Below are positions 46,296 to 60,942 of a DNA stretch of 64,000 nucleotides, one piece after another. The stretch spans positions 1 through 64,000 of the IMG/VR virus record IMGVR_UViG_3300031140_000597, one strand, 5' to 3'. The notes beneath the pieces were generated by a model that worked only from the letters and a program-made list of their open reading frames with translations, was not told where the DNA came from and made no database searches. Both the position numbers and the translations under genes were made by a program. The DNA is from an uncultured virus (IMG/VR IMGVR_UViG_3300031140_000597) (Duplodnaviria > Heunggongvirae > Uroviricota > Caudoviricetes). Positions within the stretch are counted from its first letter, which is position 1; every line of letters starts with the position of its first letter.

Positions 46296-47729
46296 ATGAC
46301 AGAAAAGAAATTACCATCAGATACGTTTTGTATTCTACCTTGGATACATTTGAGTACTCGCCCAGACGGCAGTATGAGAGTATGTTGTACAGCAAATGCA
46401 AGTAGTGTTGGTGCAACAAATGATAAAGTTCACGGTGGGCGAGTTGGCATTGTTAAGACAGATGATGGTAAGCCTGCAAACCTAAACAACAGTGACTTGT
46501 CTAGTGCATGGAACAATAGTTACATGCGTGGTGTACGTCAACAAATGCTTGCAGGAGAAAAGCCTGCTAGTTGTTTGAAATGTTACAAAGAAGAAGATGC
46601 AGGACATCGATCTAAGCGACAGTGGGAAACCCAGTACTGGATGCGTGATGGAATTGATGTTGATGAACTTGTTAAAGAAACATATGAAGACGGTTCAACT
46701 GATTCAAAACTACGATACATTGATATCCGTATGGGTACTAAATGCCAACTTGGTTGCGTTATGTGTAGTCCACACGATTCATCAGGATGGGTAAAAGATT
46801 GGAATAAGTTGTATCCACAGATTACCAATGAGTCACTAAAAGAAACAATGTCTTGGGATGATAAAGGCAAGCAGTTTGGTGCTAATTATAACTGGCATAA
46901 AAACAACCCACAGTTTTGGGAACAATTTTATGCTCAAATTCCATTCATGCGTCAACTATACTTTGCAGGCGGCGAATCGACGGTTATCGAAGAGCATTAT
47001 GAAATCCTAGATAAAGTTATTGAAATGGGTTATGCATCTCAGATTGAGTTGCGTTACAACAGTAATGGCATTGAATTGCCTGATCGTCTACTAGAGCAAT
47101 GGAAGCATTTCCAAAAGGTACGTTTCCATTATAGTATTGACAGTATTGGTGAAATGAATGATTATATTCGTTACCCAAGTGAATGGTCACATCAACTTGC
47201 AATGTTTGAGCGTCTTGATACACAGACTTCTAACAACGTAGAGATTACAATCGCGTGTGCAGTTAACGCACTAAACATTCACTACATTCCAGACTTCCTT
47301 AAATGGAAACTGCAATCAGACTTGAAGAAGACAAACATGTGGCCCTTTGGCGCTGGTGGTATTAACTATCACTTTGTATACTGGCCAGGACATTTGAATG
47401 TCAAGGTATTGCCAGATGAGTTCTTAGACAAAACCGAAGCGAAGTATGAAGAGTTCATTGCATGGTGGAAAGAGAATTGGGAACTAGGTGTTCCAAGTTG
47501 GCACAAGGGTAAAGTAGATTATCAGAAATGGGAAGATGCTGAATATGGCATCAAGCGTTTACGTGGTATGATTAGTTTTGCTCGTAGTGAAGATTGGAGT
47601 CAGCGATTACCAGAGTTTAGAGAATACATTAACAAACTAGACGAGATGCGCGGCACCGATTTCAGAAAAACATTTGCAGACATGGCTTACTTATTAGACG
47701 AGCCTACAGAGGACAATGATAGTGACTGA
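46296..47729 (+). CDS. radical SAM protein with N-terminal twitch/SPASM domain
   Basis: FCILPW, RVCC, C.KCY; CQLGCVMC, YFAGGE, YNSN, SIDS. Confidence 0.9.
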   Translation: MTEKKLPSDTFCILPWIHLSTRPDGSMRVCCTANASSVGATNDKVHGGRVGIVKTDDGKPANLNNSDLSSAWNNSYMRGVRQQMLAGEKPASCLKCYKEEDAGHRSKRQWETQYWMRDGIDVDELVKETYEDGSTDSKLRYIDIRMGTKCQLGCVMCSPHDSSGWVKDWNKLYPQITNESLKETMSWDDKGKQFGANYNWHKNNPQFWEQFYAQIPFMRQLYFAGGESTVIEEHYEILDKVIEMGYASQIELRYNSNGIELPDRLLEQWKHFQKVRFHYSIDSIGEMNDYIRYPSEWSHQLAMFERLDTQTSNNVEITIACAVNALNIHYIPDFLKWKLQSDLKKTNMWPFGAGGINYHFVYWPGHLNVKVLPDEFLDKTEAKYEEFIAWWKENWELGVPSWHKGKVDYQKWEDAEYGIKRLRGMISFARSEDWSQRLPEFREYINKLDEMRGTDFRKTFADMAYLLDEPTEDNDSD

Positions 47730-48270
47730 TGTAATACCAGTATTAATTGCGTTAGAAGTGGAATTGCCCTATGAATTACCGACACCATATGTTAAAATAG
47801 TAACAGGTGTCGGTAAGATCAAAGCGACAATGGCAGCAATGGAAGCAGTATTTAAGTACAATCCTCATACCATTATCAATATGGGTACTGCGGGCAGTTT
47901 AGATCCTGATTTAGCACTAGGTGTACATGAAGTTAGTACCGTAGGTCAACGAGATATGGATGCATCGCCTTTAGGTTGGAAAGTAGGACAGACTCCGTTC
48001 ACTGGTGAATTATGGATAGATCTAAAACTTAGTGGTGTTTCATTGACTAGTGGTGATAACTTTGTCACAAGTCAGCCACCATTGAGTAGTACACTGGTTG
48101 ATATGGAAGCATATGGTATTGCAATGGTATGCAAAAAGTATAAAGTTATCTTTGATTGCTATAAGTACGTATCAGACTTTGCAGATGAAGATTCAACTAC
48201 AGACTGGGAACAGAATTGCTCCGATGGTGCAAATGAATTCATGAAAATATTATCAAATCGTAGCGAGTAA
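47716..48270 (+). CDS. mtnN: MTA/SAH nucleosidase-like (PNP/UDP family)
   Basis: TGVGKIKA, INMGTAG, QRDMD, TSGDNFV, VDMEAY, KYVSD.AD. Confidence 0.85.
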   Translation: MIVTDVIPVLIALEVELPYELPTPYVKIVTGVGKIKATMAAMEAVFKYNPHTIINMGTAGSLDPDLALGVHEVSTVGQRDMDASPLGWKVGQTPFTGELWIDLKLSGVSLTSGDNFVTSQPPLSSTLVDMEAYGIAMVCKKYKVIFDCYKYVSDFADEDSTTDWEQNCSDGANEFMKILSNRSE

Positions 48271-48273
48271 ATA

Positions 48274-49839
48274 ATGTTAGATGTTGTCATGTTGGCGTAT
48301 GGTGAACCAAACGCTGATCAAAATTTCAAAAGAATACAGAAATTAGCACCCAATGCGAAGAGGGTAGATAATGTCGTCGGGATTTTAGAGGCACATCAAG
48401 CAGCAGCAAAATTGGCAACTACTGATAATTTTTATGTAGTAGATGCTGACGCGGTGTTATCTGAGCATTTTAATTTCTCATTCACACCTGATATCATTAA
48501 AGAATCGTATCCGGGTGTGAATGAATCAAGTTGTGTATTCGTATGGCAGAGTGTTAATGCAGTCAATGGATTGATTTATGGTTATGGTGGAGTAAAGTTA
48601 TTCCCTAGACATAAGTTATTGAATGCGAAATCATTTCAGATAGATATGACCACAACAATAGATGCACCATTAGTAGTGAAGCAACAAATATCTAATATAA
48701 CCGAATTCAATACAGATGAATTCAGTACATGGCGCAGTGCATTCCGTGAGTGTACAAAACTAGCATCTAACCCCACTCCAGATATGGATGATCGATACAG
48801 ATTAGATGTATGGTGTACTCGTGGAGATAGCAGTGCCCATGGAAAATATGCTATAATGGGTGCTAGACAAGGACGAGAGTTCGGTGCATTTTACAAAAAT
48901 GATAAGAAAACTCTAGATAAAATAAACGATTTCACTTGGTTAACCACTACATTTGACAAGTCATCAGTGCATACAATAGATCAGCATCACCCAATTCATT
49001 TATCATGGTTTCATGGACTAGAAGAATATTTTACATTGTCATCCGTAGAATCATACTATGCAGTATTTATTAAACTAAAGAATGCACTGGTATACGGTGA
49101 TAACTGGGGCATTCGCGATCTTATTTTAGAAGAAGTAAATATAGGTAAGAATGAAGACACTGAACTTTATGTTAATGTAATACTTCAATCATTATTAATA
49201 GATGATTATGTAATACCAGATCATCAAGTATTGGAATATATTAATCGCAATATTAATGATAATTTTATATATGGATTGATGAAATTGTCTGACCCATCGC
49301 ATGGTAATATTGATCTAGTAGATTTTATCACACGTGATTCGATGATAGGCAAGTCTTGGATGATTGAAGAATTAAGTAAGACAACGTTGGAACCATCTGA
49401 TGTTGTAATATTGGGTGGTAACATATGCACCCATTCATCTATGTTAATTAATAATTATGAAACAATTGAATCTATACTTAGTGTGGATATAGATCATAAG
49501 ACAACAGAGTATGCTCGTTTGTTAAATCATATAGCAGAATCTGACGAATTATTCAGTGCACAAACCAATGATGTATCTGATATAATATGGGATGAATCAT
49601 CTCTGCCTGATTTATTGATAAACACTAGTTGCGCACATATGGATGATACATGGTTTGACAATATACCAGATACTGATGATACTTTGATAGTAATACAGAC
49701 AAATGATTTTTCAGATAATATGAACTGCGTTAAAGATCTGTCTACCGCCATGACTAAATACCAAATGAAAGAAGTATTATTTAGTGGTGAACAAAGCACA
49801 CAGTTATATAATAGATTTATGATTATAGGAATCAAGTAA
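48274..49839 (+). CDS. fused glycosyltransferase-like + methyltransferase-like protein
   Basis: N-half matches 16204..16908 (VVDAD, YGYGGVKLFP, WRSAFRECTKL); C-half matches 16895..17818 (K.W..EEL, INTSC.HM, LY.RFMIIG.K). Confidence 0.75.
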   Translation: MLDVVMLAYGEPNADQNFKRIQKLAPNAKRVDNVVGILEAHQAAAKLATTDNFYVVDADAVLSEHFNFSFTPDIIKESYPGVNESSCVFVWQSVNAVNGLIYGYGGVKLFPRHKLLNAKSFQIDMTTTIDAPLVVKQQISNITEFNTDEFSTWRSAFRECTKLASNPTPDMDDRYRLDVWCTRGDSSAHGKYAIMGARQGREFGAFYKNDKKTLDKINDFTWLTTTFDKSSVHTIDQHHPIHLSWFHGLEEYFTLSSVESYYAVFIKLKNALVYGDNWGIRDLILEEVNIGKNEDTELYVNVILQSLLIDDYVIPDHQVLEYINRNINDNFIYGLMKLSDPSHGNIDLVDFITRDSMIGKSWMIEELSKTTLEPSDVVILGGNICTHSSMLINNYETIESILSVDIDHKTTEYARLLNHIAESDELFSAQTNDVSDIIWDESSLPDLLINTSCAHMDDTWFDNIPDTDDTLIVIQTNDFSDNMNCVKDLSTAMTKYQMKEVLFSGEQSTQLYNRFMIIGIK

Positions 49840-51152
49840 TGAACGATGACGATATAAAGAACAATGACACAGATAATGGGTTTTGCGCACTGCCATTTGT
49901 ACAATATAGTACATTCAATGGGGGTCGTTATCGATTATGTTGTATGGCAAAGGAACCTAGTGAACTTATTAATCAAGAAGAACTAGGCATAGATGGAACA
50001 TGGAATCATGATTACATTCGTAGTGTTCGTGAGCGTATGGCTACGGGCGAATGGCTACCAGAGTGTATAGAATGTAAAAGATTAGAACGTAACGATATTA
50101 TAAGTTCTCGTCAATGGGAAAACTATTCATGGAAAGATCAGGTTCCAGATATTGTAGCATTAGCAAGTGCAAATGATTGGAATATAGAACAGCCTCTACA
50201 ATTTGATTTTAGATTAGGTAATTTGTGTAATCTACAATGTCAGATGTGTAACAAAGAAGCATCGCATTTAGTAAGTGTTGAGCGTGCCAATATGATTGCA
50301 ACAGATTTGGGTCCCAAATCTCCTAACTTAGATAGATATGATTGGGACAATAATATTGCTAATAAAAAGAAAGCGATAATTCAGCCTGGCATCGATTGGG
50401 ATAGTTTTGATAAGATGCTGCCATATGCACAGACGATTAAAATGATTGGCGGCGAACCAACTGTTGTATCTGATATGTTCAAGTTGCTAGACAGAGCAAC
50501 TGAATCCGGATACGCAAAAAATATTACATTATCGTTCTACACGAACATCACCAATATGCAAGATAGATGGTTGAAGCAATTTAGTCAGTTTAAGCAAGTT
50601 GTTGTAAATTGCTCATTAGAGGGCATGGGTGATATGAATGATTATTTACGTCCGCCATCGCAGTGGGATTCAGTATGGGAAAATTTTGATAAGTTAGTAA
50701 AGTATTCAAATACATCAGAAGGAAAGAACATTCGTGTACGTGTCACTACGGTGAATCAAGTAACAAACGCGTTGCATTTGGTTCCATTCTGGAGATTTAT
50801 GCACGATTATCAACAGACTAATGACCGTACCATCGGCATGAGTACGAATCAATTGGTAGAACCTGAATATTACTCAATGGCGCATAGTCCCCAATGGTTG
50901 CGTGATGAACAGAAATCACAGATACTAGAATTTTTAGAAGAGATAAAAGATAGTCCTCATTATGAAGATTATTCACGTCCGTTAATGGAAGCATTGCATT
51001 TTGGCGAAGATCCAGAAACCAAGTATGATCGTGGATTTATGAGGGATTATGTTCAAGTAACAGAAAACTATGATAAGCATCGCGGACATGATGTGATGTC
51101 AGTAGCACCTGAATTTAGCCGAATTAAATCAGATTTAGAACTTGACAAGTAA
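49839..51152 (+). CDS. radical SAM protein with N-terminal twitch/SPASM domain
   Basis: FCALPF, RLCC, CIEC; CNLQCQMC, GGEP, YTN, SLEG. Confidence 0.9.
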   Translation: MNDDDIKNNDTDNGFCALPFVQYSTFNGGRYRLCCMAKEPSELINQEELGIDGTWNHDYIRSVRERMATGEWLPECIECKRLERNDIISSRQWENYSWKDQVPDIVALASANDWNIEQPLQFDFRLGNLCNLQCQMCNKEASHLVSVERANMIATDLGPKSPNLDRYDWDNNIANKKKAIIQPGIDWDSFDKMLPYAQTIKMIGGEPTVVSDMFKLLDRATESGYAKNITLSFYTNITNMQDRWLKQFSQFKQVVVNCSLEGMGDMNDYLRPPSQWDSVWENFDKLVKYSNTSEGKNIRVRVTTVNQVTNALHLVPFWRFMHDYQQTNDRTIGMSTNQLVEPEYYSMAHSPQWLRDEQKSQILEFLEEIKDSPHYEDYSRPLMEALHFGEDPETKYDRGFMRDYVQVTENYDKHRGHDVMSVAPEFSRIKSDLELDK

Positions 51153-51160
51153 GGAAATAA

Positions 51161-51829
51161 ATGACATCAACTAATATGGAATATTTAACTGAGATAGATT
51201 TTGCATTAACCACATATTGTCAAGCACGATGTAGAAGTTGTGCTAGAACGAATCAATATACTGGTGAAAAAGAAGATTGGTTAGAACTCAAGCATATGAA
51301 TCTAGATGTGTTTAAACGAACTCTTGCAGCATCTACTAATATAAAGTATAATATAATTGAGTTTTGTGGCGAGTTGGGCGATCCCATGATGCATCCACAA
51401 GTTGACAAATTTATAGAAACTGCATTAGAATATGCACCATCAATATTAATATCAACAAATGGTGCGCTTAGAAATGCAAACTGGTATAAGACGATAGCAG
51501 AAAAATACACAGACGATGTCTTTATAAATTGGGCAATTGATGGAGCAACACATGACACCAATTGGAAGTATAGAGAAGGTGTTGATTTTAATAAAGCTTT
51601 TGAAAATATGAAAACTCACACTCAATCAGGTGGGGATGGTGAATGGCGATATTTAATATTTGAGTGGAATTGGCATGAAATACCGCTAGCACGTCAAATG
51701 GCAAAAGAGATTGGAATTAAAATTATTTTTTGCTTCAATAATAGAGATTTTGGATTAATAACACCAGATTCTAGATTGGATGCAGAAAAATTATTAATAG
51801 GAGTGAGTCCAGATGACATCAAAGGGTAA
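51161..51829 (+). CDS. radical SAM core domain protein
   Basis: CQARCRSC, CGELGDP, STNG, AIDG, W.YLIFEWN. Confidence 0.88.
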   Translation: MTSTNMEYLTEIDFALTTYCQARCRSCARTNQYTGEKEDWLELKHMNLDVFKRTLAASTNIKYNIIEFCGELGDPMMHPQVDKFIETALEYAPSILISTNGALRNANWYKTIAEKYTDDVFINWAIDGATHDTNWKYREGVDFNKAFENMKTHTQSGGDGEWRYLIFEWNWHEIPLARQMAKEIGIKIIFCFNNRDFGLITPDSRLDAEKLLIGVSPDDIKG

Positions 51830-52223
51830 ATATAATATTGAATGTCAATCATTCGAAGCTCTAAATGAATTTACTAACCTCCCTGTAAGAAAATGGGAAG
51901 TAACACCAGAAGGAAGAGTGTGGCCATGTTGTTATTTTGCAAATGCATGGGATAGACGACATATGATGAGGGCAGATGAATTGGGTCCCGATGAAGATTC
52001 TAGTGAAGAAGATTTTCATAATGTAAATGGTGAATCAGCAGAATTATTGAATGATGCTAGAATGATGACTATAATAAATGAAGATCCTGATTGGAATAGT
52101 TTAGAACATCACTCTATAGAAGAAATCATAGCGCACGAAGTATTCCACAGTTACATCTGGACTGAAGGATGGAATAGCGATAATCCTGCGATATTGTGTG
52201 TTAATAATTGTAATAAGTGTTGA
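51813..52223 (+). CDS. stand-alone SPASM/twitch-like Fe-S domain
   Basis: IEC, G.VWPCCY, C.NNC; corresponds to the C-terminus of 18683 and 59558. Confidence 0.7.
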   Translation: MTSKGKYNIECQSFEALNEFTNLPVRKWEVTPEGRVWPCCYFANAWDRRHMMRADELGPDEDSSEEDFHNVNGESAELLNDARMMTIINEDPDWNSLEHHSIEEIIAHEVFHSYIWTEGWNSDNPAILCVNNCNKC

Positions 52224-52248
52224 CAAGTAAGCCGTATTGTTGTATAAT
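52220..52248 (+). promoter_or_regulatory. sigma70-type promoter
   Basis: TTGACA-N17-TATAAT. Confidence 0.75.
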
Positions 52249-52277
52249 AGTTATATAAGTTAATAAAGCGCAAGGAA

Positions 52278-52424
52278 ATGAATATGTTAAATTTTTTAGA
52301 GACTACTGTTTTGCCAATGACACGTGTTATTGAAGCGAGCGGCTATTTTGAAATATTGTTATTATGTTTATTGCCAATCATGCTGATTGGTAGTGCGGTA
52401 TTATTTAAGAAAGGTGAATTATAA
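52278..52424 (+). CDS. small membrane protein (48 aa)
   Basis: AAGGA RBS; single hydrophobic segment; read manually. Confidence 0.5.
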   Translation: MNMLNFLETTVLPMTRVIEASGYFEILLLCLLPIMLIGSAVLFKKGEL

Positions 52425-52594
52425 TGGCTAGATTTAGTGAGTTTAAGCATTGGGTACAATCCATGTGGTATGATCATAAGCGCGAAAAGATTGAGTGGGA
52501 AGGTAGTCCACCAGATTACGGTTTTCGTACGTGGGTTAACATGAACAAATGGTTCATCAAGCGTATGTGGAAAGCACGTAACGAAGAATCATAA
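52424..52594 (+). CDS. small Trp-rich hypothetical protein (56 aa)
   Basis: TAATG coupling; MARFSEFKHWVQSMW... Confidence 0.6.
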   Translation: MARFSEFKHWVQSMWYDHKREKIEWEGSPPDYGFRTWVNMNKWFIKRMWKARNEES

Positions 52595-52650
52595 GTTTAT
52601 ATTAGACAGAACTGTAACGTATATCTGACCTTGTTCTAGACAAAAGGGTT

Positions 52651-52768
52651 TGGGTTGTAGCGCAGTCTGGGAGAAGCGTCTATCCTCGGTGATGTAGCAT
52701 TAGATTAATTACCTAATACCCTGCATTACATAGATAGAAGGTCGTGGGTTCGAATCCCTCCAACTCCG
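52651..52768 (+). tRNA. tRNA-Pro-like element with about 41-nt insertion in the anticodon loop (intron-containing or pseudo-tRNA)
   Basis: GTAGCGCAGTCTGG D-arm, CTATC/GATAG anticodon stem, GGTTCGAATCC T-arm; no CCA. Confidence 0.6.
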
Positions 52769-52819
52769 TTAGAGTTTTGTCTAATATAAATATAGTTTAA
52801 CTAAGCGTAGGGAAAAGTA

Positions 52820-53023
52820 ATGATTGTAGCACTAGCACTAATTGGGGCATTGTTCACAGTAGACAATGCAGAGTTTTTAAATCAGGTAGAGAAGAATAAA
52901 GCAGATGGTATGTCGTGGCATTACATTGGGTCAACTGCACCAAATGCAAATGATCCGTACATTGCTGCAATTAACAAAGAAACGGGTGAAGAAACTGTTT
53001 ACTTTAAGATGTTACAGGACTAA
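52820..53023 (+). CDS. small exported hypothetical protein
   Basis: TATAAATA at 52785; hydrophobic N-terminus. Confidence 0.6.
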   Translation: MIVALALIGALFTVDNAEFLNQVEKNKADGMSWHYIGSTAPNANDPYIAAINKETGEETVYFKMLQD

Positions 53024-53054
53024 ATGTAACTAAGTATTTAATTGAAAATAAGTG

Positions 53055-53083
53055 TTGACAAGAACGAAATAGTCTGTTACACT
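53055..53083 (+). promoter_or_regulatory. sigma70 promoter P1 of tRNA block 1
   Basis: TTGACA-N17-TACACT; about 40-nt direct repeat with P2. Confidence 0.75.
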
Positions 53084-53168
53084 TATTACATAGGTTTGAG
53101 AAGCGTAACTAAGCATTTTGAACCGAAAAAGATAAATAGAATCATAAGAAATAAAGTTAAAATAAGTG

Positions 53169-53197
53169 TTGACAAGATAGAAATAGTCTGTTATACT
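53169..53197 (+). promoter_or_regulatory. sigma70 promoter P2 of tRNA block 1
   Basis: TTGACA-N17-TATACT. Confidence 0.8.
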
Positions 53198-53246
53198 TAT
53201 AACATAAACAGTTAAAGATAACTGTAATAAACAAGAGAACGAAACG

Positions 53247-53360
53247 ATGTTAAACACATTCTGTAATTTACATAGTAAACTAGATAGTCAACGCTGGTAT
53301 CAGCCGGAGATTATGAATGTGCCCGCGAGTTTCTTAGACGAGGATGATGGATTATATTAA
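53247..53360 (+). CDS. putative attenuator leader peptide (37 aa, MLNTFCNLHSKLDSQRWYQPEIMNVPASFLDEDDGLY)
   Basis: lies between promoter and terminator; contains all 20 amino acids; its 3' part is complementary to the terminator 5' arm. Confidence 0.7.
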   Translation: MLNTFCNLHSKLDSQRWYQPEIMNVPASFLDEDDGLY

Positions 53361-53386
53361 GCCATTAAATCCAATAAATTTCTAAG

Positions 53387-53420
53387 AAACCCGCCAAGCG
53401 AAAGCAAAGCGGGTTTTTTT
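53387..53420 (+). terminator. intrinsic terminator / attenuator upstream of tRNA block 1
   Basis: AAACCCGC...GCGGGTTTTTTT. Confidence 0.85.
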
Positions 53421-53585
53421 ATGACAGTGTAAAAGTAGAAGCGGAACGAGGTCGCTGAGATTACACTTTAAATAATATCTCTAAAATGGCGTGTTGTAGG
53501 ATTGAAAGTTCTAGTTAGAATGAGTAAAATTATGACAGTATATTTTTATACTAAAAAGCATTCATAGAGTGTTTTTCAGTATAAT

Positions 53586-53659
53586 GCTCGGTTAGCTCAA
53601 AGGTAGAGCCATCGCTCGATAAGCGATAGACGAAGGATCGTTACCTTCACTGAGTACCA
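53586..53659 (+). tRNA. tRNA-Ile(GAT)
   Basis: cloverleaf, ATCGC-TCGATAA-GCGAT, CCA; C33 and A54 non-canonical. Confidence 0.85.
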
Positions 53660-53706
53660 TTTTAAAATTGGAGATTCACTGCCATAAGTGTGAACTATAA
53701 AATTAC

Positions 53707-53783
53707 GGATTGTTAGCATAGTGGCTTAATGCAGCACCTTCATACGGTGAAGATCAATGGTTCAAATCCATTACAATCCACCA
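53707..53783 (+). tRNA. tRNA-Met(CAT)
   Basis: CACC-TTCATAC-GGTG, GGTTCAAATCC, CCA. Confidence 0.85.
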
Positions 53784-53792
53784 CAAGTTTTA

Positions 53793-53868
53793 CAGGGTAT
53801 AGCTGAGTTTGGTTTAGCACGGGCCTTGGATGCCTGAGACGAGGGTTCAAGTCCTTCTTCCCTGACCA
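53793..53868 (+). tRNA. tRNA-Pro(TGG)
   Basis: CGGGC-CTTGGAT-GCCTG, CCA; A37. Confidence 0.88.
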
Positions 53869-53922
53869 TTAGAGATAGTGTATATCTCGTGTCTTTTATT
53901 AGATATAAAAATACAATTTAAT

Positions 53923-53995
53923 ACTCTTGCCAGTGGAACTGGCAGTTGGGTTTCGACCCCGACTTGCGAATGTTCGATTCATTCCAGGAGTGCCA
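53923..53995 (+). tRNA. tRNA-Arg(TCG), atypical D-arm
   Basis: TTGGG-TTTCGAC-CCCGA, TGTTCGATTCA, GCCA. Confidence 0.75.
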
Positions 53996-53997
53996 AA

Positions 53998-54133
53998 TTT
54001 ACTATGCTGGCTGCCGTCTACGTTTCCGGAAACTGACGTTAAATATTGAGGTTCAACTCCTCGGATACATTAAGGAAGGCTTGGTGTATCGCGTTACAGG
54101 CAACGTAAGGGTTCGACTCCCAAATAGTAAACC
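53998..54133 (+). ncRNA. tRNA-like structured RNA with two T-arms
   Basis: terminal stem TTTACTAT/ATAGTAAA; GAGGTTCAACTCCTC and GGGTTCGACTCCC; 11-bp internal hairpin. Confidence 0.5.
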
Positions 54134-54141
54134 GCTTTGAT

Positions 54142-54219
54142 GGTGATCGTAGCATAACTGGCAAATGCCCAAGGTTGTGAACCTTGTAGATCCGGGATCA
54201 TACCCCGGCGATCACACCA
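54142..54219 (+). tRNA. tRNA-His(GTG)
   Basis: CAAGG-TTGTGAA-CCTTG, G-1, CCA; T-loop GATCATA. Confidence 0.88.
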
Positions 54220-54229
54220 CTTATTTTAT

Positions 54230-54315
54230 GGAAGATGATCTAGTCTGGGACTAGGATGACTTGCTAAGTCAATCGGCTCGAAAGGGTTTGGGATCGTAAC
54301 CTACTTCTTCCGCCA
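54230..54315 (+). tRNA. tRNA-Ser(GCT)
   Basis: TGAC-TTGCTAA-GTCA, long variable arm, GCCA. Confidence 0.85.
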
Positions 54316-54321
54316 CTTTTA

Positions 54322-54398
54322 GCGCGGTTGCCAGAGTAGCCAACGGAGCGGCTTGCAAACCCGTACAACCATCGGTGCAAATCCGATACCGCGCTCCA
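54322..54398 (+). tRNA. tRNA-Cys(GCA)
   Basis: loop TTGCAAA, U73, CCA. Confidence 0.88.
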
Positions 54399-54404
54399 AT
54401 TTTA

Positions 54405-54431
54405 AGTTCCGTTCGTCTATCGGTTAGGACA
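54405..54431 (+). pseudogene. 5' fragment of a tRNA-Glu-type gene
   Basis: GTTCCGTTCGTCTATCGGTTAGGACA (acceptor 5' strand + D-arm) with no 3' half. Confidence 0.5.
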
Positions 54432-54446
54432 TACGGGAAGAATTAC

Positions 54447-54523
54447 ATCCCCATAGATTACGTTGGTTAAATCACTAGACTTTCACTCTAGCGAACCGGG
54501 ATCGTCGCCCGGTGGGGATACCA
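54447..54523 (+). tRNA. tRNA-Glu(TTC)
   Basis: CTAGA-CTTTCAC-TCTAG, CCA. Confidence 0.88.
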
Positions 54524-54525
54524 TT

Positions 54526-54628
54526 TTTGTCTTATAGTTTAATATGGCATTTGGGTATGACGATACTCAAGAATAGAATCTTGCAATCAGCGAGAGATAC
54601 AGGTATTGCATAATCCTGTTAAGACAAA
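54526..54628 (+). ncRNA. degenerate tRNA-like element with expanded D and T loops
   Basis: TTTGTCTTA/TAAGACAAA stem; TTGGGTAT/ATACTCAA hairpin; TCTTGC/GCGAGA arm; ACAGG/CCTGT arm. Confidence 0.45.
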
Positions 54629-54639
54629 TTATTTTTAAT

Positions 54640-54714
54640 GCATCGGTAGTGTCAATGGAAACACGCGAGATTCCAAACTTCGTATTCTAGGTTCAAGTCC
54701 TAGTCGGTGTGCCA
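54640..54714 (+). tRNA. tRNA-Trp(CCA)
   Basis: loop TTCCAAA, GGTTCAAGTCC, GCCA. Confidence 0.88.
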
Positions 54715-54720
54715 CATTAA

Positions 54721-54821
54721 GGTAGTTAAGCAGTTGAGAACCATATCGTGAAACCTACGGGGGAGTTGGTATTGGAACAAATAGTTCGCTGCTCAAGAGG
54801 GTGTTGACCTCTACTGCCACC
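54721..54821 (+). ncRNA. tRNA-like element (acceptor + T-arm, rearranged core)
   Basis: GGTAGT/ACTGCC-ACC, AGAGG-GTGTTGA-CCTCT, AGCAG/CTGCT. Confidence 0.4.
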
Positions 54822-54826
54822 CTTTT

Positions 54827-54925
54827 TATCTTGTTGCTTAATTAAAGCAGTGGAATCCCTCATACATCGTCAATGCTATGAGAATGATGTTTCCATGCAT
54901 GTAGGTGCAAATCCTACCAAGATAA
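54827..54925 (+). ncRNA. tRNA-like element with 35-nt anticodon loop
   Basis: TATCTTG/CAAGATA, D-arm GCTT/AAGC, TGGAA/TTCCA, T-arm GTAGG-TGCAAAT-CCTAC. Confidence 0.55.
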
Positions 54926-54936
54926 ATTATTTTTAA

Positions 54937-55022
54937 GCAGGATACGACTCATGGTGAGACAGCGGATTGTAAATCCGTAGCGTGTAATGCGCAAGTAGGT
55001 TCAATTCCTTCATCCTGCACCA
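54937..55022 (+). tRNA. tRNA-Tyr(GTA)
   Basis: GCGGA-TTGTAAA-TCCGT, long variable arm, CCA. Confidence 0.88.
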
Positions 55023-55029
55023 CTTTTAA

Positions 55030-55107
55030 GCCGCAGTGACCCAAATAGGTAGAGGTGCTGGTTTTAGAAACCAGATGTTGTAGGTTCGATCCCTACTTGC
55101 GGTACCA
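55030..55107 (+). tRNA. tRNA-Leu(TAG), short variable arm
   Basis: CTGGT-TTTAGAA-ACCAG, CCA. Confidence 0.88.
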
Positions 55108-55142
55108 ACATAAATACAACCATATATAGGAGAAACCATATA

Positions 55143-55466
55143 ATGGCAATTACATTATCTAAAGAAGCATCAGAGCGCATATCAGATTACATGATCAACA
55201 GAGGACCTACGTACGGTGTACGTGTAGGTGTAAGAACAACAGGTTGTTCTGGTCTTGCATACATAGTAGAGTTTGTCGATAATATTGACGAGAATGATAC
55301 AGTCTTTGTATCAAATGAAATAAGTATTGTAGTAGATCCTAAAGGTTTAACATACCTTGACGGTACTGAGTTGGATTATGGACGTGATGGACTCAACGAA
55401 GGATTCAGATTTAATAATCCAAACGCAAAAGACGAATGCGGTTGTGGCGAAAGTTTCACTGTATAA
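55143..55466 (+). CDS. iscA: A-type Fe-S cluster carrier IscA/HesB
   Basis: GVR.GV.TTGCSGLAY, LDG.ELDY, F.F.NPN...ECGCGESF. Confidence 0.95.
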   Translation: MAITLSKEASERISDYMINRGPTYGVRVGVRTTGCSGLAYIVEFVDNIDENDTVFVSNEISIVVDPKGLTYLDGTELDYGRDGLNEGFRFNNPNAKDECGCGESFTV

Positions 55467-55484
55467 TATTTTATTAAATAAGTG

Positions 55485-55513
55485 TTGACAAGAGAAGTAT
55501 AATGCGTTACAAT
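55485..55513 (+). promoter_or_regulatory. sigma70-type promoter
   Basis: TTGACA-N17-TACAAT. Confidence 0.7.
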
Positions 55514-55626
55514 AGCACAACGTTTTGAGAAAGACATAAAGTTTTTTGATAAATAAATAAGAAGTTTATGCTGACGTATTTCAAGTCACTAATTTAGAAA
55601 TAGTTTAAAATAGTTTAAAATAGTAG

Positions 55627-55655
55627 TTGACAATAGTTAATAAGTTTGATATAAT
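55627..55655 (+). promoter_or_regulatory. sigma70 promoter of ncRNA/tRNA block 2
   Basis: TTGACA-N17-TATAAT with AT-rich UP-like repeats (AAATAGTTTA). Confidence 0.8.
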
Positions 55656-55665
55656 AGTAGAACAA

Positions 55666-55694
55666 GTTGAGAGATCAACACGCTCTTTAAAAAT
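55666..55694 (+). promoter_or_regulatory. rrn-like boxB-boxA antitermination site
   Basis: GTTGA-GAGA-TCAAC GNRA hairpin followed by CGCTCTTTAAAAAT. Confidence 0.7.
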
Positions 55695-55700
55695 AGTTTG

Positions 55701-55796
55701 TTTTAATATGTATTATTGTTGATGAAAGTAGGGCTTGATGTTGGAAGTAGAACCATTAAGGTGTCTGACGATAGTTAACAATAATATATTTTAAAA
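55701..55796 (+). ncRNA. stem-enclosed small RNA candidate 1
   Basis: long inverted repeat ATGTATTATTGTTGA / TTAACAATAATATAT around an approximately 50-nt core. Confidence 0.45.
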
Positions 55797-55812
55797 TGAA
55801 TTAAAATAGTTA

Positions 55813-55841
55813 TTGACATTGTTATGAAACTTTGTTATACT
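55813..55841 (+). promoter_or_regulatory. sigma70-type promoter
   Basis: TTGACA-N17-TATACT. Confidence 0.75.
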
Positions 55842-55853
55842 ATTAAAGTGTTC

Positions 55854-56005
55854 TTTTGTATACACATTAGGTAGATACTGATTTTAGTAGGTATGGTGAT
55901 TCGTGCTGAACGTTGAAGGGAATCGCTAAATGACAAGGGACTTGCTGTGTGGGATTAATCATCCCTGTCGTAGACAAGCGGTTGTTAAATAATGTGTATG
56001 CAAAA
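55854..56005 (+). ncRNA. structured ncRNA, paralog A
   Basis: TTTTGTATACACATTA/TAATGTGTATGCAAAA closing stem; core shared with paralog B. Confidence 0.6.
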
Positions 56006-56015
56006 GTGTATTTTA

Positions 56016-56161
56016 ATATATGCTATTGGGTAGAGCCAGATCGTAGTAAGCATAAGGGTGCGTGCTGAAATTTGAAGGGAATCGCTGAACGACAATAGGT
56101 TTAATGTATACAGACTAATCCCTGTATATTGGAACCAACGATAGTTAAACGATAGTATATT
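56016..56161 (+). ncRNA. structured ncRNA, paralog B
   Basis: ATATGCTATTG/CGATAGTATAT closing stem; CGTGCTGAA..TTGAAGGGAATCGCT.AA.GACAA core. Confidence 0.6.
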
Positions 56162-56189
56162 TTAAAGTTTATTTTAAATAAAGTTTAAT

Positions 56190-56265
56190 TCCTGAATAGC
56201 TCAGTTGGTAGAGCAGTAGACTGTTAATCTATTTGTCGTTGGTTCGAGCCCAACTTCAGGAGCCA
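56190..56265 (+). tRNA. tRNA-Asn(GTT)
   Basis: canonical cloverleaf, loop CTGTTAA, GCCA. Confidence 0.93.
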
Positions 56266-56365
56266 TTTTCATAGTTAGTTTATTCCTTCTTACAGGATAT
56301 CCTGAGAAGATACGAAGAAAACTGATAGCATCACATCTGAAACAATGACGATGTGGTGCGGTTGC

Positions 56366-56439
56366 GCCCGATTAGTTAAGTGGTATAACAATTGCCTTGT
56401 AAGCATTAGTTGGTGGTTCGATTCCATCATTGGGCACCA
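56366..56439 (+). tRNA. tRNA-Thr(TGT)
   Basis: loop CTTGTAA, CCA. Confidence 0.9.
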
Positions 56440-56446
56440 TTTTTTA

Positions 56447-56581
56447 AAGTAGTATTAAGTAGTTACCCTAGCGGCTCATAAGAGAGAGTCGGTTCATTGC
56501 ATATAGTTACAGTTATGTGTAGTCAGCGAAATGTGCATCTGTAAGTGCATGTAGACTCGGCTAACTTCTTAATATTATTTT
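56447..56581 (+). ncRNA. multibranched structured RNA candidate
   Basis: AAGTAGTATTAAG/CTTAATATTATTT closing stem with three internal hairpins. Confidence 0.45.
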
Positions 56582-56582
56582 T

Positions 56583-56658
56583 GCTGACGTAGCTCACTCG
56601 GGAGAGCGCGACCCTGTCAAGGTCGAGGTAGTGGGATCGAAACCCATCGTTGGCGCCA
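56583..56658 (+). tRNA. tRNA-Asp(GTC)
   Basis: CGACC-CTGTCAA-GGTCG, GCCA. Confidence 0.92.
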
Positions 56659-56705
56659 CATTTAAGATCAAATTTCTTGACCAGAAGTTTGAAACAACGT
56701 TTTAT

Positions 56706-56796
56706 AGAGAGTTGGCAGAGTGGTCGAATGCACTGGTCTTGAAAACCAGCAAGGGTTCATAGCCCTTCGAGAGTTCGAACCTCTCACTCTCTGCCA
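56706..56796 (+). tRNA. tRNA-Ser(TGA)
   Basis: CTGGT-CTTGAAA-ACCAG, long variable arm, GCCA. Confidence 0.93.
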
Positions 56797-56873
56797 TTTT
56801 AGATAGTGCTAAATAGATAGTTCGTCAGATGATGTAACTATTTTATAGGAATAAACCATGTATAATATAATTT

Positions 56874-56948
56874 GTCCCATTAGCATAATGGATAGTGCAG
56901 TGGATTTCTACTCCATAGATCAGGGTTCGACTCCTTGATGGGACACCA
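56874..56948 (+). tRNA. tRNA-Arg(TCT)
   Basis: GTGGA-TTTCTAC-TCCAT, CCA. Confidence 0.92.
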
Positions 56949-56964
56949 ATTTTAAAGAGCGTAC

Positions 56965-57048
56965 AGTATCATCGCTTGTCAAGTAGATACTCAGGTAACA
57001 TCAGGCATAGCCCCTCATGATGTTATTAGGTGAGGGGGTGAGACAAGC
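56965..57048 (+). ncRNA. double-pseudoknot RNA candidate
   Basis: four crossing helices: AGTATC/GATACT, GCTTGTC/GACAAGC, TAACATCA/TGATGTTA, CCCCTCA/TGAGGGG. Confidence 0.5.
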
Positions 57049-57058
57049 ACATTTTTAT

Positions 57059-57128
57059 ATCATCATTTGCCAATTGGTAAGGTTAGGCGAAGTAGTCGTT
57101 ACTGGTTCGATTCCAGTTGGTGATACCA
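57059..57128 (+). ncRNA. CCA-ending tRNA-like RNA with a collapsed anticodon arm
   Basis: ATCATCA/TGGTGAT-ACCA, D-loop AATTGGTAA, ACTGG-TTCGATT-CCAGT; no 5-bp/7-nt anticodon arm. Confidence 0.6.
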
Positions 57129-57135
57129 ATTTTAA

Positions 57136-57208
57136 TGCGGGATGCTAAGGTATGCACTCCGGGCTCATAACCCGCGAGGTTGAGTTTCGATTACTCTTTC
57201 CGCTACCA
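57136..57208 (+). tRNA. tRNA-fMet(CAT), initiator-like
   Basis: GGG/CCC anticodon stem, loop CTCATAA, 1:72 mismatch, CCA. Confidence 0.8.
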
Positions 57209-57213
57209 CATTA

Positions 57214-57291
57214 GGGCCTATAGCTTAGTTGGTTTAAAGCAGACGACTCATAATCGTAAGATCCTTGGTTCAAGTCCAAGTAGGCCCACCA
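57214..57291 (+). tRNA. tRNA(CAT), probably Ile2 (lysidine type)
   Basis: GGGCCTATAGCT body typical of Ile2; loop CTCATAA; CCA. Confidence 0.85.
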
Positions 57292-57338
57292 CTATAATTT
57301 ATTTTTGTATAAGATTTGTCTTATACATTTACAGAAAT

Positions 57339-57429
57339 CGCTTCTGTTATCGTGACATACAACGACAACGATAGCGTTACACTCGTAACAAATACATGTT
57401 AATTATGCGAGTTGACGATAACAGAGGCG
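57339..57429 (+). ncRNA. long hairpin RNA with central bubble
   Basis: 15-bp stem CGCTTCTGTTATCGT/ACGATAACAGAGGCG plus inner ACTCGTA/TGCGAGT. Confidence 0.45.
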
Positions 57430-57438
57430 GCGCTATTC

Positions 57439-57513
57439 GCGAGTATCGTATAATGGTTATTACGGGAGGTTTCCAACCTTTTGATGTCAGTTCGATTCTG
57501 ACTACTCGCTCCA
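57439..57513 (+). tRNA. tRNA-Gly(TCC)
   Basis: GGAGG-TTTCCAA-CCTTT, TCCA. Confidence 0.92.
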
Positions 57514-57535
57514 ATATGTAAGAAGTAAAGAACAT

Positions 57536-57621
57536 GCCTTGGTGGTGGAATTAGGTATACACATCAGATTTAAAATCTGACGACTTCGGTCATGCGGGTT
57601 CAAGTCCCGCTCAAGGCACCA
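57536..57621 (+). tRNA. tRNA-Leu(TAA)
   Basis: TCAGA-TTTAAAA-TCTGA, variable arm, CCA. Confidence 0.93.
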
Positions 57622-57643
57622 AAATTAAAATAGAAGATGTAAT

Positions 57644-58375
57644 ATGAATAGTTTGTTTGAATACACAGAAGCAGTAGAAGAGTGCAAAGGTTCGTTAGAA
57701 GGTGATGGTGATAATAAGTTATTTACCGAAGCAGAGCGTGTTCTATCTACTGAAATAAACAACGAAGAAAAGATATTAAAGCATCCGATATTACATGAAG
57801 CGTTTGATCGCATCGTAGAGCAACATGTACCAAATCAATCAACTGCATTTTTATCATTATGCACTGCTACTCGTCCTTATAACAAGAGCAAGAAGTGGAA
57901 AGGATTCATCAACAAGTTTGGTGGTAAGGTAGATATGATAGTTGTATCTAATGGTGGTATGATGCCACAACAGTTTTGGAAAAGTTGGCCCTATTTGAAT
58001 TACGATGGGGGTGATCATTATGATGTTAAAATGTATCAAGATATTATGCATGAACGATTATTGAAGTTTTTTAGGAAGCACAATTACAGTAATGTTATTG
58101 CAAACTTTAGACCTAATTTAATCAATCATCAACCAGCACATGATGCGCTTTCTATTCTGAAAGAAGAAGGTAGCATTGGTGATTATATTGTAATGCCTAA
58201 TCAGGAGTTGTATGATAAGGCACAGTCATTAGGTTGGCGACCACCACAAGGTCAAGGTGATATGTTCCCTGATTTAACCAATACGATACTGAGTGCATTA
58301 ACTGCTCAAGTGGAAGAATTCGGGTATGATGAAGATTTATTTACTGTTCATGAAAAATTAAAGTACAATAAGTAG
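57644..58375 (+). CDS. ArcS-like (DUF5591) protein, putative archaeosine synthase core
   Basis: FLSLCTATRPYNKSK resembles the L.PCS..KPYS.S catalytic-Cys motif of ArcS; VVS.GG..P......P...YD. Confidence 0.6.
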   Translation: MNSLFEYTEAVEECKGSLEGDGDNKLFTEAERVLSTEINNEEKILKHPILHEAFDRIVEQHVPNQSTAFLSLCTATRPYNKSKKWKGFINKFGGKVDMIVVSNGGMMPQQFWKSWPYLNYDGGDHYDVKMYQDIMHERLLKFFRKHNYSNVIANFRPNLINHQPAHDALSILKEEGSIGDYIVMPNQELYDKAQSLGWRPPQGQGDMFPDLTNTILSALTAQVEEFGYDEDLFTVHEKLKYNK

Positions 58376-58388
58376 GTTATTTTTATAG

Positions 58389-58396
58389 TATAAATA
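58389..58396 (+). promoter_or_regulatory. T4-like late promoter TATAAATA
   Basis: intergenic. Confidence 0.65.
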
Positions 58397-58420
58397 ATAC
58401 TATAGACAGGGAGAAAGATA

Positions 58421-59095
58421 TTGTTCAAGGGAATATATAATCTTTTTAAGCAGAAAGAAGAGCCTATAGCAGAGATGATTGAAATCCCTGTTAAAAACCC
58501 AGAATTACCTCATATTGTGTTTATACACGGTGCTGGATGTAGTCATCGCAGTTGGAATTATATATTAGCAAAACTTAACCCTACCCGTTACACTATGTTA
58601 GAGTATTCGGTAGATGATAAGTTTTATACTAATCTAAATAAACTGTCGACTATTGTTGGTCAAATACATGATAGGGATTTATTTATAATATCTCATTCTA
58701 TGGGTGGTATATATGCATTGCATTTATGTCAGAGTTTTAGTCATAGAGTAATTGGTTCAATATCTATCGCGACTCCGTTTGCGGGATCGAGAACAGCAGA
58801 TTTTGTAAAATATGTATATCCATCGTATATATTGTTTCGAGATGTTGGAGTAAGAAGTGCGCCTATTATGAGGTGTCATGATATTACAATCAATGTACCT
58901 TGGACACAGATAGTTACGACAGATGGGCATGTACCGTGGCATAAGGGTGAGAACGATGGTGTTGTGACGGTAGAAAGTCAGCGTCATCGTAAAGATATAG
59001 ATTATGTAGAAATACATGTAACCCACCATGAAGCGTTGGTGAGTGATGAAGCATTAGATATTATAAAAGAAAAATTAGATATCAAAAACGCTTGA
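58421..59095 (+). CDS. alpha/beta hydrolase
   Basis: FIHGAG, SHSMGG nucleophile elbow, TPFAGS, NDGVV, H. Confidence 0.88.
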   Translation: MFKGIYNLFKQKEEPIAEMIEIPVKNPELPHIVFIHGAGCSHRSWNYILAKLNPTRYTMLEYSVDDKFYTNLNKLSTIVGQIHDRDLFIISHSMGGIYALHLCQSFSHRVIGSISIATPFAGSRTADFVKYVYPSYILFRDVGVRSAPIMRCHDITINVPWTQIVTTDGHVPWHKGENDGVVTVESQRHRKDIDYVEIHVTHHEALVSDEALDIIKEKLDIKNA

Positions 59096-59120
59096 CAGAA
59101 CACGTTACATAGTGTATAAT
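59092..59120 (+). promoter_or_regulatory. sigma70-type promoter for Ala-Ala-Thr tRNAs
   Basis: TTGACA-N17-TATAAT. Confidence 0.75.
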
Positions 59121-59169
59121 AATTTATTAGATAAATAAAGTAGTAAGTATGAAGTGGTTACATAATCGT

Positions 59170-59245
59170 GGGGATATAGCTCAGTTGGGAGAGCGACTGC
59201 CTTGCACGCAGTAGGTCGTAGGTTCGATCCCTATTATCTCCACCA
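59170..59245 (+). tRNA. tRNA-Ala(TGC) copy 1
   Basis: GGGGATATAGCTCAG, G3:U70, loop CTTGCAC, CCA. Confidence 0.95.
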
Positions 59246-59294
59246 TTATGTGACTATTAGTCTAATAAATAAAGTAGCAAGTATGAAGTACAAT

Positions 59295-59370
59295 GGGGAT
59301 ATAGCTCAGTTGGGAGAGCGACTGCCTTGCACGCAGTAGGTCGTAGGTTCGATCCCTATTATCTCCACCA
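59295..59370 (+). tRNA. tRNA-Ala(TGC) copy 2 (identical)
   Basis: same sequence as copy 1. Confidence 0.95.
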
Positions 59371-59405
59371 TTTTAAAATTAAAGAGATATCAAATTTCTT
59401 TAAAA

Positions 59406-59481
<76 letters not shown>

Positions 59482-59488
59482 AATAATC

Positions 59489-59512
59489 AGACTCCCTTCG
59501 GGGAGTTTTTTG
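59489..59512 (+). terminator. intrinsic terminator
   Basis: ACTCCC-TTCG-GGGAGT followed by T-run. Confidence 0.9.
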
Positions 59513-59557
59513 TTTCTGCAATAAATACAATTATGAAAATTTATAAGAATAATCCGA

Positions 59558-60583: not shown

Positions 60584-60930
60584 CAGTACCATTATTCAAT
60601 AAGACATTCAAATTATTTGTATTTAAGGGTGATAACGAAGTAAGTATATCACTTAGAATCACCGATAAATGTTGTAGATCATTCATGATGCCATTAGAAG
60701 ATTTCACGTATATCATTAACAATTGGCGCACAGGTGTTGATGGTAGAAACATAGATGGTAATCGTTGGTGGTGGGAATACAGAGATTGTGGTCCGAGACC
60801 AGAAATAGCCCCAGCAGATTTTGTATCTATTAGTGTACATGGATGGAACTGGCGCGTTACGGTAGCAGAGATGGAAGAGTTAGAAAGTGCATTTAATTTT
60901 CAGTTAATCAATAAAAATCATTGGGATTAA
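60580..60930 (+). CDS. hypothetical protein
   Basis: ATGA coupling. Confidence 0.6.
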   Translation: MTVPLFNKTFKLFVFKGDNEVSISLRITDKCCRSFMMPLEDFTYIINNWRTGVDGRNIDGNRWWWEYRDCGPRPEIAPADFVSISVHGWNWRVTVAEMEELESAFNFQLINKNHWD

Positions 60931-60942
60931 CTAAATAAGTGT

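Follow-up and report, generated by a model that had tools for sequence, protein, structure and literature searches.

We analyzed a stretch of 64,000 nucleotides (the window) from an uncultured virus of the Caudoviricetes (IMG/VR record IMGVR_UViG_3300031140_000597), which corresponds to the initial 64 kb of a viral contig of 75,390 bases. Ahead of its first cluster of tRNA genes lies a leader unit made of tandem promoters, a short open reading frame (ORF) and an intrinsic terminator. With a probability of about 0.4, we read this unit as a conditional terminator that gates read-through into tRNA cluster 1 and is probably coupled to ORF translation. This regulatory reading is plausible; the whole leader analysis is computational and the reading rests on three haplotypes of one narrow clade. 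The unit is restricted to one close lineage of uncultured marine large phage. If the switch works, the virus would adjust its supply of tRNAs to the state of translation in its host cell, by a logic that bacteria also apply to amino acid operons and antibiotic-resistance genes; if it does not, the unit would be one more small early gene or RNA.

The terminator and its competing upstream partner

A first-pass annotation of this DNA had recognized tandem sigma70 promoters, here P1 and P2, and both are confirmed (Table 1). The two promoters form a duplicated module of 62 nt with 85% identity and a spacing of 114 nt, and belong to a promoter family sharing the exact word AAGTGTTGACAAG, which occurs at four sites of the tRNA region (52215, 53050, 53164 and 55480) and, with one or two mismatches, at four further plus-strand sites. 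The transcript from P2 would start near 53204-53205, with the ORF start 42 nt downstream, and the spacing from P2 to the ATG is similar to that of other units carrying the same promoter family. The product predicted from these early-type promoters is a leader RNA of about 216 nt, containing an ORF of 37 or 38 codons and ending at the terminator.

The strong intrinsic terminator of the first-pass annotation also stood up to analysis. It is located between the leader ORF and the tRNA genes and is the most stable of seven plus-strand terminator-like sites in the 75-kb contig. Its 5' arm has a competing partner upstream: region 2, at 53325-53338 (GCGAGTTTCTTAGA), is complementary to region 3, at 53381-53394, at 13 of 14 positions, as had been noticed at first pass. 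This complementarity is non-random, far beyond chance. None of 200,000 shuffles of the upstream leader reached 13/14, and 12/14 was reached in 0.02% of them; among the seven terminator-like sites of the contig this is the one with such an upstream partner, the other six reaching 8-10 of 14. The antiterminator hairpin and the terminator 5' arm share 11 nt. Because pairing of region 2 with the terminator 5' arm excludes the terminator, termination would be conditional.

Folding predictions describe two exclusive states of similar energy. The leader (53205-53425) folds to -53.8 kcal/mol (z = -4.96; z = -5.41 for the leader of L004, a close relative described below), in a structure where the 5' hairpin is followed by a branched domain within the ORF, by a hairpin that covers the stop codon, and by the terminator. 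This terminated state is the global minimum, and forcing the antiterminator gives -49.5 kcal/mol, 4.3 kcal/mol dearer. In the local context of 53320-53422 the order is reversed, with -27.0 kcal/mol for the antiterminator versus -24.7 for the terminator. In predicted folding of the growing chain, the antiterminator attains minimum energy when synthesis reaches 53396, at which point the 3' arm of the terminator does not yet exist. Earlier in the growing chain, a weak pairing is predicted between 53241-53250, in the start-codon stretch, and 53325-53333; this is a possible analogue of an anti-antiterminator.

We propose that, with no ribosome on the leader or with one stalled before about codon 21, region 2 would be free and the antiterminator would fold first. 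RNA polymerase would then continue into tRNA cluster 1. A ribosome standing anywhere from codon 22 to the stop would melt region 2 and the apical hairpin and occupy the space between the two antiterminator strands, and the terminator would form. The reach of a ribosome is about 15 nt downstream of its P site; with this reach, the codons at which a stall could free the antiterminator, up to about codon 21, cover 16 amino acid types. The first-pass annotation had supposed that stalling at any early codon would have this effect; by this geometry, a stall at the codons for Ile, Val, Ala or Gly would instead mask the antiterminator. What the sequence shows is the set of parts, the non-random complementarity and an energy balance that variants retain; where the transcript starts, that the ORF is translated and coupled to termination, and that the tRNAs need read-through are our inferences.

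What lies downstream agrees with the earlier count of 11 tRNAs. ARAGORN reports 18 tRNAs in 53586-59481, and cluster 1 contains about 11: seven found by default, two with Rfam support (Cys-GCA and Tyr-GTA, with 38.9 and 36.1 bits) and two at a relaxed threshold (Ser-GCT and Arg-CCG, the weaker candidates). No promoter of the AAGTGTTGACAAG family is present between 53197 and 55480, which makes read-through the obvious way to express cluster 1. Clusters 2 and 3 follow family promoters (55485, 55627 and 55813; 59092) with no intervening terminator. From this arrangement, expression of cluster 1 may reasonably be supposed to require read-through at 53420.

Table 1. Features of the leader unit and of the first tRNA cluster in the window
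Feature	Position	Strand	Description
Promoter P1	53055..53083	+	TTGACA-17-TACACT, extended -10 TG, 10/12; first copy of duplicated module
Promoter P2	53169..53197	+	TTGACA-17-TATACT, extended -10 TG, 11/12
5' hairpin of leader RNA	53208..53225	+	7 bp; in all folds, identical in L004
Shine-Dalgarno-like AAGAGAA	53233..53239	+	ends 7 nt before ATG, GAG core 9 nt before
Leader ORF	53247..53360	+	37 codons and stop; 38 codons in L004
Branched structure inside ORF, codons 3-25	53255..53321	+	predicted; includes the GC-rich rare-codon stretch
Antiterminator 5' strand (region 2), codons 27-31	53325..53338	+	invariant in L004 and the X19 contig
Apical hairpin of antiterminator	53342..53372	+	spans stop codon; hypervariable patch
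Antiterminator 3' strand (region 3)	53381..53394	+	overlaps terminator 5' arm
Intrinsic terminator	53384..53420	+	11-bp stem, inner GAAA-capped 2-bp stem, U7 run; -17.3 kcal/mol
Candidate weak promoter P3	53502..53530	+	TTGAAA-17-TAAAAT, 10/12; between terminator and tRNA-Ile
tRNA cluster 1	53586..55107	+	Ile, Met, Pro, His, Glu, Trp, Leu; Cys, Tyr (Rfam); Arg-like, Ser-like weaker

The reading frame and its peptide

The leader ORF encodes the peptide MLNTFCNLHSKLDSQRWYQPEIMNVPASFLDEDDGLY, in which 20 distinct residues occur, 19 of them within the first 27, exactly as the first-pass annotation had stated. Its remarks on alternating synonymous codons and on rare GC-rich codons hold as well. Codons CGC, CCG, CCC and GCG make up 11%, 12%, 7% and 14% of their respective families. 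The GC-rich rare codons cluster in 53292-53338 (GC 51%), where stems are predicted. For the ORF as a whole, codon adaptation is 0.644, a value that ranks at the 21st percentile among windows of real genes and at the 90th among spurious short ORFs, and that mildly favors a translated frame. A description of the unit as a rare-codon-rich ORF was rejected, since the rare codons lie in GC-rich stems and overall adaptation is ordinary. No regulatory codon cluster is apparent, D33-D34 being the only tandem residues and each amino acid occurring one to five times.

How unusual is a peptide with all 20 amino acids? In random 37-mers drawn with the contig's amino acid frequencies, all 20 are present with P = 0.0043. 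Among 17,018 windows taken from proteins of the contig itself, 58 have the same composition, as do 2 of 356 six-frame ORFs of 30-45 amino acids. At least 19 distinct residues among the first 27 has a probability of about 0.001 and is observed in 1 of 732 six-frame ORFs of at least 27 amino acids, versus about 0.8 expected. With a per-ORF chance of 0.1-0.4%, about one such ORF is expected in the contig. We also considered the juxtaposition of AT-rich and GC-rich segments as the cause of the residue diversity and rejected it, as simulation again gave 0.004. The all-20 composition of the peptide is most likely a coincidence, whether or not the switch works.

The peptide belongs to no Pfam or PHROGs family and has no usable match in the ESM Atlas. 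A HMMER search of 1.84 billion representatives returned the peptide itself and one spurious repeat protein.

Relatives and competing explanations

Three viral contigs (L001-L003) are identical to the window in the leader region. A fourth, L004, is 98.7% identical over 9.7 kb and shows 15 differences in the 570 nt around the leader, of which 13 fall in 53339-53379, within the 42 nt that separate the antiterminator strands; both antiterminator strands and the terminator are unchanged. Its ORF has 38 codons, with D31E, D34E, a synonymous change at Y37 and an added Glu. The third haplotype, the X19 contig, was assembled from a seawater RNA run (record 10, covering 53100-53584). It carries 17 substitutions in the leader, 12 of them in 53348-53379, and the relative to which it belongs differs from the window by 1-14% in neighboring pieces. 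Codons 1-33 show zero DNA changes in L004 and the X19 contig.

Two of the X19 substitutions, C53394U and G53409A, form a compensatory change from C-G to U-A in the terminator stem, and C53394U leaves G53325 paired by a G-U wobble. The energies of this variant are -53.1 kcal/mol for the terminator state, -49.0 for the antiterminator state and -17.0 for the terminator alone. The apical hairpin is retained in all three haplotypes, with -7.6 kcal/mol in X19 versus -7.4 in the window, and -9.6 in L004. A strict covariation in this hairpin between the window and L004 was considered and rejected, as RNAalifold detects none and the helices are out of register with each other. Also dropped was the idea that the spacer of the promoter candidate at 53502 had been hit by two independent substitutions. 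L004 and the X19 contig carry the same allele, 53516 T>G, which makes it a single, uninformative event. The RNA-run material consists of assembled contigs, from which starts, ends and expression levels cannot be read; one such contig spans the terminator and counts neither for nor against read-through, and uncovered parts in RNA runs X21 and X22 were given no weight.

Four peptide variants, found as called proteins on 49 contigs, are members of one 90% cluster. P0001 (16 contigs) ends in FLDEDDGLY and P0003 (4 contigs) in FLEEDEGLYE; both contain Gly and have no other changes. The commonest, P0004 (26 contigs), ends in FLEEDKDLN and also carries L8S and S10R, and P0005 (3 contigs) ends in FLDEDEDLN with no other changes; both lack Gly. 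When the X19 substitutions were applied by script, the resulting ORF encoded exactly P0005. Gly is thus missing in two of the four variants, or 29 of the 49 contigs, and the all-20 composition is not kept in homologous leaders. The set of 19 residues in the first 27 is retained in all four variants, and so is the open frame.

Beyond these close relatives no leader was found. A degenerate back-translation of WYQPEIMNV and the exact terminator, each searched against viral contigs, returned the same four contigs, and a metagenome scan with the adjacent 67-amino-acid protein gave two contigs, both already known. A 192-kb relative carries a single leader copy. Contigs L005-L010, reached through a radical-SAM neighbor (48-73% identity), have no homologous leader; in the closest, L005, a tRNA-Glu directly follows the neighboring genes and no analogous promoter-ORF-terminator unit is present. 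Conservation can therefore be judged only within the close clade. Of the comparison suggested at first pass, what emerged is an ORF kept in four variants and one compensatory terminator pair, with neither covariation of the antiterminator, nor a conserved all-20 composition, nor distant leaders (L005-L010).

Several observations weigh against a translation-coupled conditional terminator. The stop codon (53358-60) sits in the loop of the antiterminator, 20 nt beyond region 2, so a terminating ribosome would leave region 2 uncovered and would have to block sterically; blocking by a ribosome inside the loop is an assumption. The Shine-Dalgarno pairing is weak (-2.9 kcal/mol to an anti-Shine-Dalgarno sequence), 26% of 57 long genes being as weak or weaker. 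The peptide variants differ radically (L8S, S10R, G35D, Y37N, D34K), with no sign of purifying selection, and with radical changes this frequent the peptide sequence itself does not look selected; moreover, their discovery through protein databases favors intact ORFs. The 10/12 site at 53502 could transcribe the tRNAs independently. Retention of the apical hairpin is weak evidence, since 11-19% of random mutants with 12 substitutions fold it as well. RNAalifold applied to the window and L004 gives zero compensatory pairs, and the antiterminator, both of whose strands are invariant, offers no covariation. The window and L004 also diverge in patches elsewhere (47.1-47.8 kb; 52.9 kb), so the variable patch of the leader is not special in itself. 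Finally, the leader is confined to very close relatives, and a relative with a 73%-identical neighbor gene has no counterpart. The attenuator interpretation of the first-pass annotation is borne out in part: the order of elements and the exclusive, nearly isoenergetic folds are there, and a regulatory codon run and a stop codon that would mask region 2 are not.

The main rival, somewhat unlikely in our judgment, is a stand-alone early unit, in which P1/P2, the ORF and an ordinary efficient terminator would produce a 37-amino-acid peptide or a stable RNA of about 216 nt. The hairpin spanning 53325-53394 would then serve RNA stability or processing, and transcripts of cluster 1 would come from 53502 or from unregulated leakage past the terminator. 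In favor of this, the strong promoter and the 5' hairpin on one side and the strong terminator on the other do bound a strongly folded RNA of this size (the z-scores given above), whose terminated state is the global energy minimum; the unchanged DNA of codons 1-33 fits a constraint at the RNA level, and gene finders call the peptide on 49 contigs. Against it stands the 11-nt overlap that excludes termination, which would be needless for stability and is found at no other terminator-like site of the contig. Furthermore, no Rfam family matches, the peptide has neither homologue nor family, and the promoter at 53502 that would release the tRNAs from the leader is a match of chance level, the scan having given 41 promoter-like matches versus 34.5 expected from shuffles. 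A conditional terminator set by something other than a ribosome, such as a protein, a small molecule or an RNA (for example a tRNA) acting on 53255-53321, with the ORF incidental, seems to us quite unlikely. It would share the alternative folds, which are real, and would explain why the ORF region is strongly structured and nucleotide-invariant in two relatives; 37-codon frames are common in AT-rich DNA (the 356 six-frame ORFs of 30-45 amino acids came from 75 kb), and the Shine-Dalgarno is weak. However, Rfam at E <= 1 over 52000-61000 returned only tRNAs and sub-threshold noise, with no riboswitch, T-box or other leader family at threshold. The nearest, Trp_leader (RF00513) at 53339-53422, scores 21.8 bits against a gathering threshold of 41 (E = 0.93). 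By inspection, the antiterminator has no T-box-like bulge. The codon usage of the ORF is also more gene-like than that of 90% of spurious short ORFs, and two haplotypes keep the frame open despite 12-13 changes at the 3' end.

The first-pass annotation had favored yet another explanation, in which the peptide is selected to contain every amino acid and any tRNA shortage or cleavage would stall the ribosome and induce the phage tRNAs. We regard this as very improbable. In its favor are the composition itself, with per-ORF chances of 0.004 and 0.001, the 19-of-27 set shared by the variants, and the established theme of phage tRNAs reportedly opposing tRNA-cleaving defenses (PMC10264068, PMC11555353, PMC11464382). 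Yet one such ORF was seen where about 0.8 were expected, and Gly is absent from two of four variants, including the commonest. By the geometry proposed above, a ribosome halted anywhere in codons 22-37 (Ile, Met, Asn, Val, Pro, Ala onward, with Gly35) would lie over region 2 or beyond it and favor termination, leaving only 16 amino acid types in the productive part of the ORF; and without codon runs a single hungry codon would cause a short delay only. The ribosome geometry and the Gly-free variants together remove the basis of an all-20 sensor. A broader hypothesis is attached to the translation-coupled conditional terminator that we prefer: that the phage gauges decoding capacity through it before transcribing its own tRNA genes. 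Ribosomes lagging through starvation, tRNA cleavage by defense nucleases or a shortage of phage-supplied tRNAs would let the antiterminator win and induce the cluster, and fast decoding would end transcription after 216 nt. We consider this rather unlikely as it stands; if true, it would constitute a feedback loop on tRNA supply and the first known attenuator of viral tRNA genes.

Genomic setting and comparison with known systems

The contig has a GC content of 33-41% and carries nearly all its long ORFs on the plus strand. A contig almost identical to it, with 192,024 bases, has an estimated completeness of about 52%, and DNA of the window is present in many marine metagenome runs, which together indicate an uncultured, large marine phage. 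The phage database contains no related record, whether searched by DNA or by a large neighboring protein. The tRNA region (53.6-59.5 kb) is interleaved with radical-SAM/SPASM genes and genes for an IscA-like Fe-S protein, a DUF5591 protein and a hydrolase; the radical-SAM/SPASM-like, IscA-like Fe-S assembly and DUF5591 genes around the tRNAs lie at 46296-52223, 55143-55466, 57644-58375 and 59558-60583. This gene set beside tRNAs suggests phage-encoded chemistry for RNA or DNA modification. The 1.2% divergence between the window and L004 is concentrated in short patches, with 16 differences in about 60 nt inside the gene for the 67-amino-acid protein and another 14 in the leader, and points to mosaic exchange among co-occurring strains. 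In the X19 relative the gene is absent upstream of the promoter; the leader and tRNA-Ile are the same and the tRNA order differs (joints 52792-54824 and 54734-52616). Two of the more distant contigs have minus-strand tmRNA genes (L006 1203-1710 and L007 1183-1691, with tags ANDNIAYEGYALAA and ANDNIAYEDFALAA), and none was found in the window.

Transfer RNA-like genes beyond those of default ARAGORN are located at 54322-54398, 54937-55022, 54233-54315, 53996-54072 and 52687-52769. The last of these, which Rfam scores at 24.7 bits (below threshold), precedes the leader, and in the X19 relative the promoter directly adjoins the 3' end of a tRNA-like sequence. These upstream sequences place the leader inside a tRNA region and not at its head. 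Ahead of cluster 2, a promoter matching the consensus at 12/12 positions (55627-55655) precedes a small hairpin, GUUGA-GAGA-UCAAC (55666-55679), which in turn precedes CGCTCTTTAAAAA (55681-55693), a sequence which we take to be two mismatches from the rrn boxA consensus. This boxA-like motif may represent Nus-type antitermination ahead of cluster 2; its genome-wide count is at the level of chance (35 versus 33.4) and the adjacent hairpin is unremarkable (z = -0.3). Two 71-nt direct repeats (55866-55936 and 56025-56095; 76% identical, 159 nt apart) lie between the promoter at 55813-55841 and tRNA-Asn (56190). Rfam gives no match to them; a structured RNA that was duplicated, or tRNA-like elements in decay, may account for them.

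Phage tRNA arrays are viewed as counter-measures to tRNA-cleaving defenses and as decoding aids, and to our knowledge the control of their expression has barely been studied. In the literature covered, which does not extend to older work on the T4 and T5 tRNA regions, we found no attenuator or conditional terminator before a phage tRNA cluster. The nearest architectural parallel is the class of amino acid operon attenuators (trp, his, leu, thr, pheA). The phage leader resembles them in its promoter, its short ORF and its antiterminator sharing a strand with the terminator; a weak upstream pairing predicted in the phage leader could act as an anti-antiterminator. However, the run of codons for one amino acid that characterizes these attenuators is absent from the phage leader. 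Their stop codon is found just before or within region 2, so that in trp and his the terminating ribosome covers region 2, whereas that of the phage leader lies in the antiterminator loop and its ribosome would not. Without translation, amino acid operon leaders default to super-attenuation, whereas the phage leader is predicted to default to read-through. The downstream genes here are tRNAs, and the setting is a phage.

Closer in logic are attenuators that report general translation stress, the vmlR leader of Bacillus subtilis and toiL-topAI of E. coli, where the translation state of an upstream ORF with no special amino acid run reportedly decides read-through and so reads out ribosome progress in general (PMC9226507, PMC12121999). 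These bacterial systems control resistance or toxin genes and respond to antibiotics, and some of the class act through Rho or translation attenuation, whereas the phage leader precedes a tRNA cluster.

In the pyrBI leader of E. coli, the ribosome translating a 44-codon ORF overlaps the terminator hairpin, and translation prevents termination. The two leaders are alike in having an ORF of similar length whose coupling with RNA polymerase decides, or in the phage would decide, intrinsic termination; they differ in that the phage ORF stops 24 nt before the terminator stem and its translation is predicted to favor termination. T-box leaders also switch between antiterminator and terminator and read tRNA status, but over 52000-61000 the phage sequence gives no T-box match in Rfam at E <= 1 and, by inspection, has no specifier loop and no UGGN bulge. 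Finally, conditional terminators of the type predicted by PASIFIC are reported to be recognized by an upstream partner that competes, at similar energy, for the 5' arm of the terminator (PMC5314783). The phage leader shares this criterion, which defines a class of predictions rather than a mechanism.

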